From positions 652-64,651 of the forward strand of contig CAZVKN010000005.1 in NCBI GenBank assembly GCA_964627035.1: a stretch of 64,000 nt of DNA, written 5' to 3'. Position 1 is the stretch's first letter. Each line of letters starts with the position of its first letter. The DNA comes from an uncultured bacterium (GTDB lineage: Bacteria; Electryoneota; AABM5-125-24; Hatepunaeales; Hatepunaeaceae). The notes below the pieces were generated by a model. That model had not been told where the DNA came from and ran no database searches. It worked only from the letters and a program-made list of their open reading frames with translations. This document shows, in pieces, positions 9,593 to 22,000 of this stretch. A program made the position numbers and the translations under genes.

Positions 9593-11881
9593 TCACCGAA
9601 CCAATACGATCTTTCGCGTTATCGTCTGCACATCCGATTTTAGTCGAACGAGGTATATCCCCGATGTCATTTCCGCCCCATCCCAATGCGTGGTGTAGCT
9701 GCCTGCATTTAATCGGTCTTCCACCAGTGTTGTCACCAACCGACCGTTCAGGTCAAATAGCTCAAGAGAAACTTCTGTCTCATTCGGTACTTCAAAAGTG
9801 ATATTCACCTGTGCGTTGAACGGATTGGGGTAAATAGAGCGGAGCGTAAGGGTGTTTGGGACATTGACCTTACTTTCTTGAACTGCATCTCCTCCGGTGT
9901 ATTGAAGTATCTCGATTCCTGAATTTTCGACCACATAAATCAAACCATCTTCCATCAGAATAGCGGTCGGATTATCCGGTAGTGTTATTGCATCAATCAG
10001 AAACGGCTCCTCAGGATTACGGACGTTGTATAGATGAAAATTGGTCTCGCCATAGTCACTAACGGCTACCAGTCCGTGTTGTATTGAGGTAACCAGAAAC
10101 AACGGTTCACGGAGTGATCGATCAATCTGCCCGATTCGTTCGGGATGAACAGGATCTGCGAGACTGAATATTGTGCCGTAAGAAATCATTAGATCGTGTT
10201 CTAAGGCTATGGGATAGTAAAAAGCATCTTCTTCTTCGAGATGAGATACAATCTCAGGTTGCGATGGATCTTCAATTGATATGATGTAAGAACCGGAGAA
10301 GGTCCACCAGAGATGTGGAATGTACACCATTTCTTCGTTTACAGCCATGCCGAAGCAGAAGCCTGCGTACGCTCCTTGCCTATCAATGGAGAGTGAACCG
10401 ATTACTTCTGGATTCTCCGGGTTGTCCAAGGAGATAACATTGAAACAGCTCCAGGTTGAGTCAACATCATCATCATAATTGTAAACCATTGCAGAAGCTA
10501 ATACACCTCTACTCCACGGCGCGATGTCAATGTATGCGATATCGCGTTCTTCATCCGGAAGCATTTCCAAAAAACCGACAGTTTCCGGCGATTCAGCATC
10601 GCTGATGTCAATGACAGTCAGGTCAAACGATGGGGAAAGTGTTACGACATAATCACTACCCTCGGGATGTGTCCAAGTGCAATGTCTGAAGTAGTGGGCT
10701 TCCAAGTGATAATCACTGACCTCGACTGGGTTCTCAGGATTTTCCACGTATATTACCCGGAGCGTGCTATCGTTCAGCGCGACTGTCAGATAATCATCTA
10801 TCTTTCCTAAATCGTTGCGACAAGTACGTGAGCGGAATCTACCCAACAATTCAACGCTCTCTAAGTCTGAAAAGTCAAAGCAATGAAGTCCTAATTCACT
10901 CGCCACATGGAGGATATCATCCTGAAGAGTAATTTCTCTTGGATATGAAAATAACTGATCATGAAATCTGACAACCTCAACCAGAGTATCGGGATCCTCA
11001 GTTGAATAAAGACCCAATGACCATTCGTCTTCCTCTAATCCTACAGCACCGAGCAACCCTTCAACACTTCCTACAAGATAAGGATAATAGTCTCTCTCGT
11101 GTGACCACCGTAGGAACGGTTCAGTTGGATCGCTGAAGTCAATACATTCAAAGTAGTATCCTTCAAAGTGACGGGATGTTCCGGTAAAAAAAAGAGTACC
11201 TACAATTCTTGGTTTATAATTCCAATAAGGATAAAGGGTGCTTTCTGAACGATATGAACCGACGATTTCCGGATTTTCAGGATTCTGTAATGATAGAAAC
11301 GTGATATTGCAATACAGCCCAAAATCTTCGACGTAATTGACTAATATGCTGTCAGATATATCCAGCCTTTTACCGCTGACCCTTAAGGTACTATCAACAA
11401 CCACCGGATTTTCAGTATCGGAAACATCAATTACGTATAGATAGCTTCTTCTGTCAGCTACAGCAACTGTATAGATGTAATCGTCAATCTGAACGAATTC
11501 ATAGCCACGAGTTTGTAAGTTGCTTGGAAGTTCCGGAAGAAGCTCCAAGTTACTTGGATCGGAAATATCAAGGCGATAGAGTGATCCTGCTTGAACGTTG
11601 GCAACCTCACCTATGATCTGAATTCCAACGAGTTCACTACCGCGATTCCAGTATCTCCCTGTGAGGGCAACCTGATCCAACAATTCCGGTTGGGATGGAT
11701 CGCTGACATCGAAGCTGAGCAGACCGTAATCGCATACAGTCAGTGCGACATCACCGCTAACTGCAACATCAAAGAACTGCCCCCAGTAGGGCAGCCACCC
11801 AATCGGTTCAACGGACGGTTGGGCAAAATTGGGATTGGTAAGAACGGTTAGAATGATACATGTTAGAAAGACCTTTTTCAT
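9593..11881 (-). CDS. T9SS-sorted LVIVD-repeat beta-propeller protein (paralog of 3960..6494)
   Basis: Signal peptide MKKVFLTCIILTVLTNPNFAQP. More than 12 LVIVD-like units (FDVSDPSQPELLDQV, LDISDPSNLELLPEL, IDVSDTENPVVVDS, LSLQNPENPEIVGSY, IDISDAESPETVGF, ISLDNPENPEVIGS, YNVRNPEEPFLID). C-terminal domain IYPNPFNAQVNITFEVPNETEVSLELFDLNGRLVTTLV...SGIYLVRLKSD..ITRKIVLVR. SD-like GGAGAA upstream. Confidence 0.8.
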   Translation of the reverse strand: MKKVFLTCIILTVLTNPNFAQPSVEPIGWLPYWGQFFDVAVSGDVALTVCDYGLLSFDVSDPSQPELLDQVALTGRYWNRGSELVGIQIIGEVANVQAGSLYRLDISDPSNLELLPELPSNLQTRGYEFVQIDDYIYTVAVADRRSYLYVIDVSDTENPVVVDSTLRVSGKRLDISDSILVNYVEDFGLYCNITFLSLQNPENPEIVGSYRSESTLYPYWNYKPRIVGTLFFTGTSRHFEGYYFECIDFSDPTEPFLRWSHERDYYPYLVGSVEGLLGAVGLEEDEWSLGLYSTEDPDTLVEVVRFHDQLFSYPREITLQDDILHVASELGLHCFDFSDLESVELLGRFRSRTCRNDLGKIDDYLTVALNDSTLRVIYVENPENPVEVSDYHLEAHYFRHCTWTHPEGSDYVVTLSPSFDLTVIDISDAESPETVGFLEMLPDEERDIAYIDIAPWSRGVLASAMVYNYDDDVDSTWSCFNVISLDNPENPEVIGSLSIDRQGAYAGFCFGMAVNEEMVYIPHLWWTFSGSYIISIEDPSQPEIVSHLEEEDAFYYPIALEHDLMISYGTIFSLADPVHPERIGQIDRSLREPLFLVTSIQHGLVAVSDYGETNFHLYNVRNPEEPFLIDAITLPDNPTAILMEDGLIYVVENSGIEILQYTGGDAVQESKVNVPNTLTLRSIYPNPFNAQVNITFEVPNETEVSLELFDLNGRLVTTLVEDRLNAGSYTTHWDGAEMTSGIYLVRLKSDVQTITRKIVLVR

Positions 11882-12015
11882 TTCGATTCTCCATAATTAT
11901 GTTCTGCATGTCAAGAACAAATCTTAATATCATTATTTCAAGATAGATTGTTTAACTGCTGATGTCAACTCGTTGTTATTTATTCAGAGATATTCACAAC
12001 TGAGTAAATGGATTA

Positions 12016-19005: not shown

Positions 19006-22000
19006 CTACCGAACCAGTACGATCTTTCGTGTAATTGCCCTCTCGTCCGATTTCAGACGAATAAGGTATATTCCCGATGTCAACGCTGATCCGTCCCAGT
19101 GCGTGGTGAAACTGCCTGCTGTTAAACGGCGCTCAACCAGAGTTGTCACCAATCGTCCGTTAATATCAAATAGCTCAAGCGAAACATCAGTCTCACTCGG
19201 AACATCGTAGGATATGCTTATCTGAGCGTTGAACGGGTTGGGATAGATTGCTGTCATGCCAAATTCCTCCGGAGACAACCTCTCCGATTCGGTCGGCGCT
19301 GTGAGAATTACATCGAAGAAAATCGGCAGTCTTACATCTCCCTGCATGGAGTTGGTTGTGAAGAATAGCTCCGCATTCCAGCTCATATTCTGTTCATCCT
19401 GCAGCGGTATCAAATCCTCAGCGTCAAGCATCAGTGTCAGTTCGACATTATGATCCGGATTGAGTACTCCGTCATAAGAATCAAGGTCAAACCATGAAGT
19501 ATTGGTCTCTAACTGCCAGACGTTGATCGTGTCTCCCGGATCACTCGTGTTTTCAATCGAGACAAATACAGTACTGTAAGGATCATACCGATTCGTTATG
19601 AACGCACCTTCAGGTCTCCCCTCCTGATCAATCCGAGCTACAAACTCCACGTCACCTGTCCCGGTACTTATCTTGTGAACCTCAGTGTGATCCACTTCTC
19701 CTTGATTATGTACATTATGATACACATAGAGAAACCCGGGATCTACCGAAGTATGTGCCAACCCGTAAACTGTCAATCCGTGACGAGCCAGTTGTGCAAC
19801 TTCTTCTCCCTCACGCGTGTAACCTGCAATGTATCGTGAAGTCTTGGCACAAATCCATAACAGTTCACGGTCTGAATCCCACGCAACAGCCTGACATGGG
19901 TTAAACGGTCCTTCAAATGATTCAACCTCCCCCTCCGGCGTAAAACCGTAAATGATGTTGTCTTCTCCTCCCCAAATCAGTTCACCATCGTATGCAAGAT
20001 CACCCATACCGTAACGAGAATCACCAAATTGTTGAAAAGCATCTACTAATTCACCTTCACGATTTAATATATAAACAAAGTTGTCATCTCGAGCGCTTGA
20101 TCCGCCTCCTGATACGTAGTAATGGTCATCAACAAACACGACTCCTTTCAGACGAGAGTTTTCAACTTCTTCACCTGCTGACAGAGATTGCCGCAGTTCC
20201 CAGGAATCGAGATGCGCATTATCCGGCAGCCGCTTCTCGGCGAACCACTCCAATACTCCGTTACCGCTGTTTTCAACCGAAAACGGGAGATCAACCGATG
20301 TCTGTTCTTCAGCAATTATTTCCACTCTCAGCTCTTGCTCTGATAATTCAAAATCCGCATGAAACAGACCGAAGTTGACTTCGATAGATTCGTCTTCCGG
20401 GACATTGAGATCACCGCGTGTTGAATCGAGGTAACCCTCGGCAGTAGCGGTTAACGTAAATGAAATCTCGGCAGGTGCATGTTCAATTGAGTAGTTACCT
20501 TCATCGTCACTGAATGAGACAAAACCATGAGTCGTAATCAATCTTGCCTGTGGAATCGGATCGCCGGTTTCAACGTCAGTCACCACACCGAATATCTCTC
20601 CCTCTCTGCGGATAATACCTGTCGTGAACAGGATGGCTCTTCTTTCCTCAAGCTCCGCAGCACCTATGGGATACATATCATTCCAGGTATAGCTTATTCC
20701 GGTTGTGCCGTCGGGGCTGGATATGCCGACTGAAGCGTAGTAGTTGTTTCGCTCGCGTGGGGCACGTCCCTGCTCCGGTCCACGGACATTGCTGATGGTG
20801 TTGTACTGAAACATAATGTCTGAATCACCGGATTCAACAAACCATCGCTCCGGATCAAACAATATCAACTCAAAATTGAGATCATCATTACCGGGTTCAA
20901 AATGACGAAGCTTGTACCATTCAACAATGAAGATGCCTGTCTCATCATCGTAAAAATAGTAAACCTGAGAATCATCTTCAAATTTAAGCCAATCCCAGAA
21001 GGGAGCGATCATCCCCACACCGCCACCGATTGCGCGATCAAGGGGCCAATTCTGGAAATTCACGATATTTTCCTGATCTCCGATAGCTACAAAACCGTTC
21101 GTTCCGATGGTAATCTGATCAAACTCATATCCGTAGAATTGAGCCGTAAAACCGAGATCAACAACCACAGATTCACCCACATCTTCAAATCCCTCTACAT
21201 CAGACTCACCGTCAAATTCGCAGCTAATACCGTCGAAGTCACGATTCCGCTCCTCACGGCTGATCTCGATCCAGTCATATTCTGGCGTAATCTCCCAGCC
21301 CTCATCGGTGTCATCAAAACAGACATAACCGTAATCATCCGGTCCGAACGGTTCTCCTTCAGCAATCTCACCTGCCTGAAGTTGGAAGAAGACGGTGTCA
21401 ACAAATTCATCCTCACCTGTAAGAATCATCATCATGTCACACATTGAGCCGGGGATCGCAATTGGGCTGACGCTTACAACAAAAGGATCGCCGGCGAGTC
21501 GTGAAAAACGTCCAGCATCTATGTCATTATAATCCGACTCCTCGTCAACTACTAGAATACTATTGCCTATTGCGGTTAGCTCAGCGATCATCGGCGCAGA
21601 GTTCATTCTTCCACGATTGACGATTTCAATGTCGAGATCAATTTCCTCCCCATCAAGTATCACCCCACCGATAACACGGCGAACATCAAAACACGGCGAG
21701 TGAGGATCGAGTGTAATAGCCGAACTCCAGTTCAATCCGCCATCGGCTTCAAAATTAATCTGCACTGTCGGACGAGTGCTCGGACGAGCTTCTCCATCAG
21801 GTATCTCTGGATGGATCATCACCTCGATCACATCCCTGCCATCAGCTTCCGCACCGGCATCCATGTCACCGAATTGAACAATTCCTTCATCCACCTCAAC
21901 CCAAGGAGACAGCGGTGTGGCTGTTGCTTCGACGTTTTGCAATGCTTCGTTGCCAAGATTGATGGCAGTCAATTCGAGAAAGAACAGTTCCCCCGGGTTG

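Follow-up and report, generated by a model that had tools for sequence, protein, structure and literature searches.

The 3′ ends of four neighbouring cargo genes, which are consecutive and co-oriented, encode similar C-terminal sorting domains (CTDs), and this likeness probably stems from non-reciprocal recombination among these 3′ ends (gene conversion or cassette replacement) rather than from a special constraint on the protein. All four genes lie within the window, as the whole analyzed stretch of 64,000 nucleotides from an uncultured bacterium is called here, and genes are named after their first coordinate (g9593, g12095, g16000 and g19006). The CTD-encoding segments, in the following referred to as cassettes, are:

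9596 to 9835, minus strand: cassette of the LVIVD/beta-propeller cargo gene 9593-11881; 80 codons; PF18962 E 8e-14, TIGR04183 E 3e-15; 75-81% amino acid identity to the other three
12098 to 12340, minus strand: cassette of the SBBP-propeller/CarboxypepD_reg cargo gene 12095-15673; 81 codons, with one extra Gln; PF18962/TIGR04183 matches
16003 to 16242, minus strand: cassette of the beta-helix cargo gene (ORF 16000-18222); PF18962/TIGR04183 matches
19009 to 19248, minus strand: cassette of the C25-peptidase cargo gene 19006-24138; PF18962/TIGR04183 matches

The type A CTD is a beta-sandwich of about 80 residues, which guides proteins exported via Sec to the translocon of the outer membrane and is subsequently removed. 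Profile matches to PF18962 and TIGR04183 placed such a T9SS sorting domain at the end of all nine cargo ORFs in the window. For the four cassettes these matches span essentially the whole model, with scores of 49.3-53.8 bits for PF18962 (cut-off 27) and 46.7-56.2 bits for TIGR04183 (cut-off 23), and each cassette is located at the extreme C-terminus of its gene product. No match of the tails to the type B CTD (TIGR04131) was found in the Pfam or NCBIfam tables at E ≤ 0.01. Judged by these profiles, the four tails represent T9SS type A sorting domains of the ordinary kind and the domain itself does not exhibit any difference. Hydrophobic, signal-like N-termini could be recognized by eye in g9593, g12095 and g19006. 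Genes for the T9SS machinery (SprA/Sov, PorV, PorU, PorK-N) were not identified within the 64-kb window. The best named homologues came from Ca. Hatepunaea (Electryoneota) and Calditrichota MAGs.

Over their last 80 codons the four genes share 75-85% of the amino acids and 76-82% of the nucleotides in codon alignments, and global alignment of the cassettes yielded nearly the same values (75-84% and 76-81%). In global alignments with the five other CTDs of the window the cassettes reached only 35-48% amino acid and 50-58% nucleotide identity. The usual CTD identity between cargo proteins of this window and of related genomes is 28-48%, and adjacent cargo genes in related genomes carry CTDs which are merely 28-40% identical to one another. 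The shared stretch begins with the codons for I/T-YPNPFN and ends with the stop codon, neither flank being similar in the alignment. Within the set, pS was 0.43-0.59, dS 0.65-1.18 and dN/dS 0.11-0.17, with the cassette of g12095 being the nearest to all three others (dS 0.65-0.81), whereas pS against the other CTDs of the window was saturated (0.64-0.87); as a cassette comprises merely 240 nt with about 60 synonymous sites, every one of these divergence estimates is noisy. The earlier description of the last ~80 codons as nearly identical, with high nucleotide identity, was thus right about a shared domain but overstated its closeness, as 43-59% of the synonymous sites differ. The same holds for the idea of a recent cassette duplication or gene conversion: conversion or replacement is supported, but a dS of 0.65-1.18 is substantial and hardly recent. 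Exchange among the cassettes is, by these estimates, old, although dS has not reached the near saturation seen against the sister organism described below.

The most direct comparison of cassette and flank is offered by g12095 and g19006. The upstream regions of all four genes had been regarded as unrelated, which does not apply to this pair, as both genes contain a common module of approximately 440 amino acids (39% identity). The module and the longest identical run between the two cassettes are located as follows:

13199 to 14533, minus strand: ~440-aa module of g12095 (aa 381 to ~825), flanking control; 36-39% identical to g19006 and g29687 by BLASTP, pS 0.74-0.82 by codon alignment
19294 to 20616, minus strand: matching body module of g19006 (aa 1175 to ~1615), control for the CTD comparison, from BLASTP and codon alignment
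30818 to 32161: copy of the module in g29687, from BLASTP
12135 to 12178, minus strand: 44-nt identical tract, g12095 copy; longest identical run and candidate for a later, shorter conversion patch
19046 to 19089, minus strand: the same run in its partner g19006

Equal synonymous divergence in cassette and flank, which the first-pass annotation considered as speaking against conversion, was not observed for g12095 and g19006: the CTDs (85% amino acid identity) have a pS of 0.45 and a dS of 0.69, whereas the body module is saturated with a pS of 0.74. Conversion therefore withstands this comparison, which is feasible solely for this pair and, via orthologues, with another genome. Among identical residues the codon is also identical in 47 of 67 cases in the CTD versus 74 of 158 cases in the body (Fisher p 0.0014). 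The CTD is thus discordant with its homologous flank in this pair of sequences, which supports a younger ancestry of the cassette DNA than of the flanks. Conversely, g29687 is colinear with g12095 over about 800 amino acids, yet their CTDs share merely 42% identity. The annotated string that had been reported as identical in g12095 and g19006 was confirmed; exactly two copies of this 42-nt string exist, at 12137 and 19048. In a GENECONV-type test, with permutation inside codon-position classes, the 44-nt run exceeded the expectation for the pair (p 0.0019) and for all pairs (p 0.0032) and thereby represents a long tract of the kind expected from conversion. A run of 23 nt between g9593 and g16000 was marginal (p 0.049), and the identical runs of the remaining four cassette pairs were not significant in the same test.

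Further evidence comes from a sister organism, in which the orthologues of g9593 (P0279, 64% amino acid identity) and of g19006 (P0290, 70%) carry the same CTD subtype; the assignment of both proteins to one genome is inferred from their comparable coverage (9.4 and 9.2 in one assembly). The CTDs of g19006 and P0290 are 70% identical in amino acids and 69% in nucleotides, whereas the paralogous cassettes in the window reach 76-82% nucleotide identity among themselves. Orthologous CTD pairs have 67-69% nucleotide identity and a pS of 0.76 (g9593/P0279) and 0.69 (g19006/P0290), all cross-genome CTD comparisons, including these pairs, fall between 0.69 and 0.81, and pN is 0.16-0.22 between the genomes versus 0.09-0.13 within the window. 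In neighbour-joining trees of the DNA the four window CTDs were monophyletic in 100% of the bootstrap replicates and the orthologous pairings appeared in 0%; in protein trees these pairings were recovered in 1-2% and the window clade in 41%, with P0290 nesting close by. The quartet-informative sites point in the same direction, 14 grouping the CTDs by genome, six by orthology and two in the crossed arrangement (7:3:1 at codon positions 1 and 2). As six sites back orthology, homogenization appears to be partial. The CTDs are accordingly more alike within the genome than to their orthologues, the pattern by which concerted evolution is defined, with the caveats that the sequence is short and that GC3 differs between the two genomes (0.50-0.61 versus 0.62-0.64), which could draw third positions together within one genome. 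CTD and body of g19006 and P0290 diverge in step (70% amino acid identity each, pN 0.19 and 0.18), which argues against an unusual constraint on the CTD.

For the two other genes, relatives carry other CTD types. The positional counterpart of g16000 in the sister organism, a beta-helix gene adjoining P0290, ends in a CTD of another type, with 40% identity, and P0160 and P0161, the closest homologues of g12095, have CTDs that are 72% alike mutually and only 30-33% identical to that of g12095. No orthologue of g12095 was found in the sister organism; P0161 and P0165 were considered for this role and rejected, as their contigs and that of P0290 have different coverage within the same assemblies. 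Two other candidate signals were also dropped. A CTD more diverged than its body had been indicated by the 312-aa fragment P0013, but the body of the full-length P0279 is heterogeneous in pS (0.42-0.80). Nor does g12095 stand out clearly in a regression of CTD on body identity within its family, since the CTDs of this family are in general poorly conserved. Among 1.84 billion representatives searched exhaustively with the CTD of g12095, at least 70% identity was reached only by P0001, itself a fragment of g16000, and by P0013; as the window's own proteins did not turn up, counts of the subtype across genomes cannot be derived from this search. A genome-collection scan with g12095 yielded only relatives of 38-39% identity in one unclassified MAG, and a metagenome-collection scan with the CTD alignment gave a best match of 48%, in a collection that lacks the source contigs. 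A word-indexed protein search with the same alignment returned short fragments only and was uninformative.

With regard to g16000, the ORF 16000-18222 covers only the 3′ portion of a gene interrupted by a frameshift, the 5′ portion of which lies in another frame:

18225 to 18683, minus strand: 5′ part of the frameshifted gene, encoding the signal peptide and the first beta-helix repeats; different frame from 16000-18222

The N-terminus of its product is, by inspection, close to that of an intact sister gene of 562 amino acids. The same ORF split was called in five independent assemblies, each of which agrees with the window either fully or with a single base difference across the matched region 2095-25673.

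Taken together, the following order of events is proposed, its direction and the recombination mechanism being inferred. The subtype would have been present on the LVIVD and C25 genes before the organism of the window split from the sister lineage, and the copies on these two genes would then have been homogenized in the lineage of the window. The same cassette may subsequently have taken the place of other CTD types on the adjacent beta-helix gene and on the SBBP gene. Thereafter the copies would have diverged under purifying selection to a dS of 0.65-1.2, and g12095 and g19006 would have shared at least one short patch later on. The exchanged tract would be confined to the domain because homology between the genes stops there. 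As different CTD types share merely about 50-58% of their nucleotides, simple homologous recombination cannot account for the initial replacement on g12095 and g16000.

It might be argued that the CTD was acquired long ago by 3′-segment duplication or fusion and that purifying selection has kept the copies alike without any later exchange. The low dN/dS within the set, the presence of the subtype on two sister orthologues, which makes it old, and the exact coincidence of the similarity edges with the domain boundaries would fit. Selection on the protein does not, however, lower synonymous divergence, which is smaller within the window (pS 0.43-0.59) than between CTDs across genomes (0.69-0.81) or between the saturated bodies (0.74-0.82). 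As the orthologue CTD is moreover not more conserved than its body, and relatives of g16000 and g12095 bear other CTD types, this scenario is considered unlikely. It appears rather improbable, too, that a single recent wave of duplication copied one CTD-bearing 3′ segment onto new bodies, creating chimeric genes without conversion between pre-existing CTDs. This idea draws on the different or only distantly related gene bodies, on another segmental duplication in the island (a copy of the g3960 5′ end lies at 3632-3910, with 99% identity over 228 nt) and on a REP-like hairpin located 3′ of both g12095 and g16000. This hairpin was also considered as a common 3′ anchor for conversion and discarded, as it is present after only two of the four genes. 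Yet g9593 and g19006 already had the subtype before the sister split and are now closer to each other than to their orthologues, and the dS values are not recent. The relatives of g12095 and g16000 are furthermore complete cargo proteins with CTDs of their own, which implies that the tail was replaced and not first acquired.

The first-pass annotation had also raised the possibility of a cargo subclass with one fate, anchored or released. That the subtype marks cargo with such a fate or with a dedicated partner, the likeness being driven by selection, seems highly improbable, even though the subtype has been kept on two orthologue pairs across near-saturated divergence and type B CTDs have been shown to contain a targeting signal and to have shuttle proteins of their own (PMC12618676). 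[quoted passage not shown] In addition, such a subclass leaves the reduced synonymous divergence unexplained, and together with the equal divergence of orthologue CTD and body the claim is unsupported. A variant, in which the subtype acts as a genuine sorting sub-code among type A CTDs, was kept on LVIVD and C25 cargo across the deep split and later reached two neighbours, its bearers being routed together and conversion serving as the means of recruitment, is likewise very unlikely; if true, it would imply a joint route, for example one attachment or release pathway or a paralogous PorV/PorU.

Under the preferred reading of gene conversion or cassette replacement, a T9SS sorting tail can act as an exchangeable DNA cassette between adjoining cargo genes in a little-known lineage of the FCB group. 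As the tail would be exchangeable between neighbours, CTD similarity within a genome can mirror recombination history instead of shared function, which calls for caution when cargo is classified by clustering of CTD sequences. Compared with the type A CTD family in general (PF18962 Por_Secre_tail / TIGR04183), it is unusual that four different cargo genes lying side by side have tails with 75-85% identity. The process exemplified by the four cassettes is known, the example is an old one, and no new machinery, mechanism or secretion subclass is revealed. In Porphyromonas gingivalis, combinatorial modularity, allelic exchange and gene conversion have been described for the CTD-bearing surface proteins encoded by rgpA, kgp and hagA (PMC5266723), and as in that species C-terminal modules are common to T9SS cargo genes of one genome via recombination. 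There, however, mainly large adhesin modules (CAD/DUF2436) with more than 90% identity are exchanged among the strains and paralogues of a single species, whereas here a 240-nt CTD alone appears to have been exchanged between genes with different or very distant bodies, in old events and in an uncultured member of the FCB group. The pattern also resembles the concerted evolution of prokaryotic paralogues (PMC6053082) in that segments within one genome are closer to each other than each is to its orthologue elsewhere; it differs in that one domain per gene and not whole paralogues is concerned, and in that homogenization is partial and apparently episodic.

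A type A T9SS C-terminal sorting domain (CTD), a C-terminal beta-sandwich that acts as export signal, terminates nine ORFs of the window (PF18962 and TIGR04183, every match exceeding the curated cut-off), six of which are consecutive and co-oriented:

CTD-bearing ORFs of the consecutive series
3960-6494, minus strand, first of the six
6564-9416, minus strand, second
9593-11881, minus strand, third (g9593)
12095-15673, minus strand, fourth (g12095)
16000-18222, minus strand, fifth (g16000)
19006-24138, minus strand, last (g19006)

Over their final 80 codons g9593, g12095, g16000 and g19006 exhibit 75-85% protein and 76-82% DNA identity, whereas the other five window CTDs are, as the first-pass annotation had stated, much less alike (35-48% protein and 50-58% DNA identity to the four). 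When the DNA is aligned together with 100 nt of flanking sequence, the similarity extends from the (I/T)YPNPFN codons to the stop codon, and a 42-nt string quoted as common to g12095 and g19006 was found as exact matches at 12137 and 19048. Because of these identities, the domain-limited alignment and the exact match, the similarity of the four tails is real and far beyond chance. The description as near-identical cassettes with high nucleotide identity is, however, too strong at the DNA level, as 43-59% of the synonymous sites differ among the four (dS 0.65-1.18, dN 0.09-0.15, dN/dS 0.11-0.17; Nei-Gojobori).

The regions upstream of the four tails had been called unrelated, which does not apply to g12095 and g19006, as these share, together with g29687, a module of ~440 aa (36-39% identity). 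Via this common module the proposed synonymous test of cassette versus flank was feasible for one pair, g12095/g19006, and the cassette indeed diverged less: the body (418 codons) exhibits 39% aa identity and a saturated pS of 0.74, the CTD (80 codons) 85% aa identity, a pS of 0.45 and a dS of 0.69. The control g29687 has an architecture closer to that of g12095, being colinear with it over ~800 aa through the CTD inclusive, yet its CTD is only 42% identical to that of g12095 (pS 0.80). At identical residues of g12095 and g19006 the same codon is used in 47 of 67 cases in the CTD versus 74 of 158 in the body (Fisher p 0.0014). As saturated comparisons within this genome reach a pS of 0.74-0.82, codon bias cannot explain the values of 0.43-0.59 among the four CTDs.

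With the CTD as query, exhaustive searching of representative sequences yielded one foreign protein of at least 70% identity, P0013, whose 90% cluster contains a full-length member, P0279 (749 aa), the orthologue of the LVIVD gene g9593 (64% aa identity overall). On its 142-kb contig, P0279 stands alone at its locus. The search with the C25 gene g19006 yielded a full-length match, P0290 (1715 aa, 70% identity). As both proteins come from the same assembly with near-equal coverage (9.2 for P0290 vs 9.4 for P0279), they are probably from one organism, the sister organism; that we infer a single genome here is a weak point of the orthologue test. Their CTDs belong to the same subtype as the window four (66-74% aa identity). 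Contrary to what is expected without exchange, the CTDs do not pair by orthology. The orthologous pairs are 67-69% identical in DNA (pS 0.76 and 0.69), the paralogues within the window 76-82% (pS 0.43-0.59), and pN is 0.16-0.22 between genomes versus 0.09-0.13 within the window. DNA neighbour-joining bootstraps gave 100% for monophyly of the window four, 77% for the two sister CTDs together and 0% for the orthologous pairings. At the protein level, where the signal is weaker (a weak point), the six subtype CTDs were monophyletic in 100%, orthologous pairings appeared in 1-2% and the window-four clade in only 41%. Informative sites of the quartet g9593/g19006/P0279/P0290 group by genome in 14 cases, by orthology in six and crossed in two (7:3:1 at codon positions 1 and 2). 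The four-point sums of the CTD DNA distances (genome 54, orthology 64, crossed 67) have an order which unequal rates alone cannot produce. Since CTD and body diverged in step between g19006 and P0290 (aa identity 70%/70%, pN 0.19/0.18, pS 0.69/0.74), the CTD is not unusually constrained.

Divergence along g9593 and P0279 (locus L015, 10001-12250) is uneven, with a pS of 0.42-0.56 at codons ~360-600 and 0.67-0.80 elsewhere, which suggests a separate recombination or transfer between the lineages within the gene body. The sister organism also contains a tandem array of three ice-binding-like T9SS cargo genes (355-360 aa; locus L105, 14570-20007; two copies in the assembly of L104), alternating with DUF5670 genes and small OMP beta-barrel genes. 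The near-identity of the cargo CTDs apparently results from whole-gene tandem duplication.

The sister gene adjoining P0290 is, by position and N-terminus, the counterpart of the beta-helix gene g18225/g16000; its type A CTD is of another kind, with 40% identity to the g16000 tail. No signal peptide is encoded in ORF 16000-18222; ORF 18225-18683, upstream in another frame, encodes one together with the first beta-helix repeats, and its N-terminus closely matches, by inspection of both sequences, the intact 562-aa sister gene at the same position. Both ORFs are a single frameshifted gene, split in the same way in five independent metagenome assemblies; the junction near 18222-18260 thus leaves the CTD-bearing 3′ ORF without signal peptide. 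The sister counterpart is intact in two assemblies and called split (77 + 488 aa) in another. In the window gene, the N-terminal module is duplicated internally (g16000 aa 240-349 vs g18225 aa 21-131, 50% identical). For g12095 no sister orthologue was found, which is a weak point of the conversion case. Its nearest full-length homologues, P0160 and P0161 (53-54% in the body), have CTDs 72% identical to each other and only 30-33% to that of g12095; in the genomes of g12095 homologues, CTDs of neighbouring cargo genes are 28-40% identical to each other.

In the simplest reading, the LVIVD and C25 genes would have carried the subtype ancestrally; in the window lineage, with the cargo genes side by side, the CTD copies of these two would have been homogenised, and the cassette would have taken over the tails of the two genes between them. 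As the immediately adjacent g6564 and g3960 retain other CTD types, adjacency alone is insufficient for such spread. Just downstream of 3960-6494, a partial duplicate of the g3960 5′ end (3632-3910 vs 6219-6497; signal peptide and ~75 residues) forms a truncated 111-aa ORF, with an identity of 99% across 228 nt and 92% across 279 nt; as a segmental duplication within the same island, it is far younger.

The 42-nt string lies in a 44-nt identical run of g12095/g19006, within a 64-nt stretch with two mismatches. Permutation shows this run to be longer than expected (p 0.0019 for the pair and 0.0032 over all pairs), the 23-nt run of g9593/g16000 is borderline (p 0.049), and the remaining four cassette pairs exhibited no significant excess of identical runs. 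This pattern suggests that occasional short conversions followed the main homogenisation. As recombination mechanism we infer that homologous recombination could swap short patches between copies of 76-82% identity. With only a ~15-18-nt YPNPFN-coding block (family D6) in common between CTDs of different types (~50-58% nt), the initial tail replacement on g12095 and g16000 would need microhomology-mediated or illegitimate recombination.

The window also contains several short repeats. A REP-like palindrome of ~60-70 nt (GTTCAGAGTTCAG...CGTGAACTCTGAAC) lies just downstream of T9SS cargo genes in three of four copies (g12095, g16000, g50378); the two complete copies, when folded, gave long hairpins (-34 to -38 kcal/mol, z near -6), and the element may act as a terminator or be a small mobile repeat. 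Arrays of 8-nt period, (G/A)ATT(G/T/A)AGT with up to 10.5 copies, are intergenic, mostly just upstream of minus-strand genes, and may serve for regulator binding or as leader elements. A 39-nt repeat (TTCTTGGTGTCTTCGTGCCTTGGTGG..., 92% identical; 9549-9587, directly downstream of the g9593 stop codon, and 45514-45552) may be part of another small intergenic family.

Positions of the repeats
REP-like palindrome: 12035-12094, 15945-15999, 28342-28404, 50224-50286
8-nt-period arrays: 9422-9469, 24479-24534, 27602-27649, 29474-29529, 48968-49063

Weak points of the conversion case are also the short cassette and the unequal GC3 of window and sister genomes. Overall, conversion or cassette replacement, as the first-pass annotation had proposed, is supported, but the exchange is old and not recent. 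Its further idea of a cargo subclass sharing one fate found no support; PorU removes the CTD sequence-independently (PMC4804311) and the PorV shuttle recognises all type A CTDs (PMC12618676).

The best named homologues of the window organism are from Ca. Hatepunaea meridiana (Electryoneota; PMC9324843) and Calditrichota MAGs. A full-text literature search of one collection yielded no description of CTD-only conversion, which does not prove novelty; in evolutionary terms, the case neatly exemplifies an already known process at work on an already known domain. In P. gingivalis, the gingipains and HagA are documented T9SS cargo proteins whose C-terminal modules are reshuffled by recombination (PMC5266723), and concerted evolution of prokaryotic paralogues is described, if uncommon (PMC6053082). 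Unlike in these systems, only the CTD is exchanged here, the gene bodies differ or are at most distantly related, and the host is an uncultured bacterium of the FCB group.
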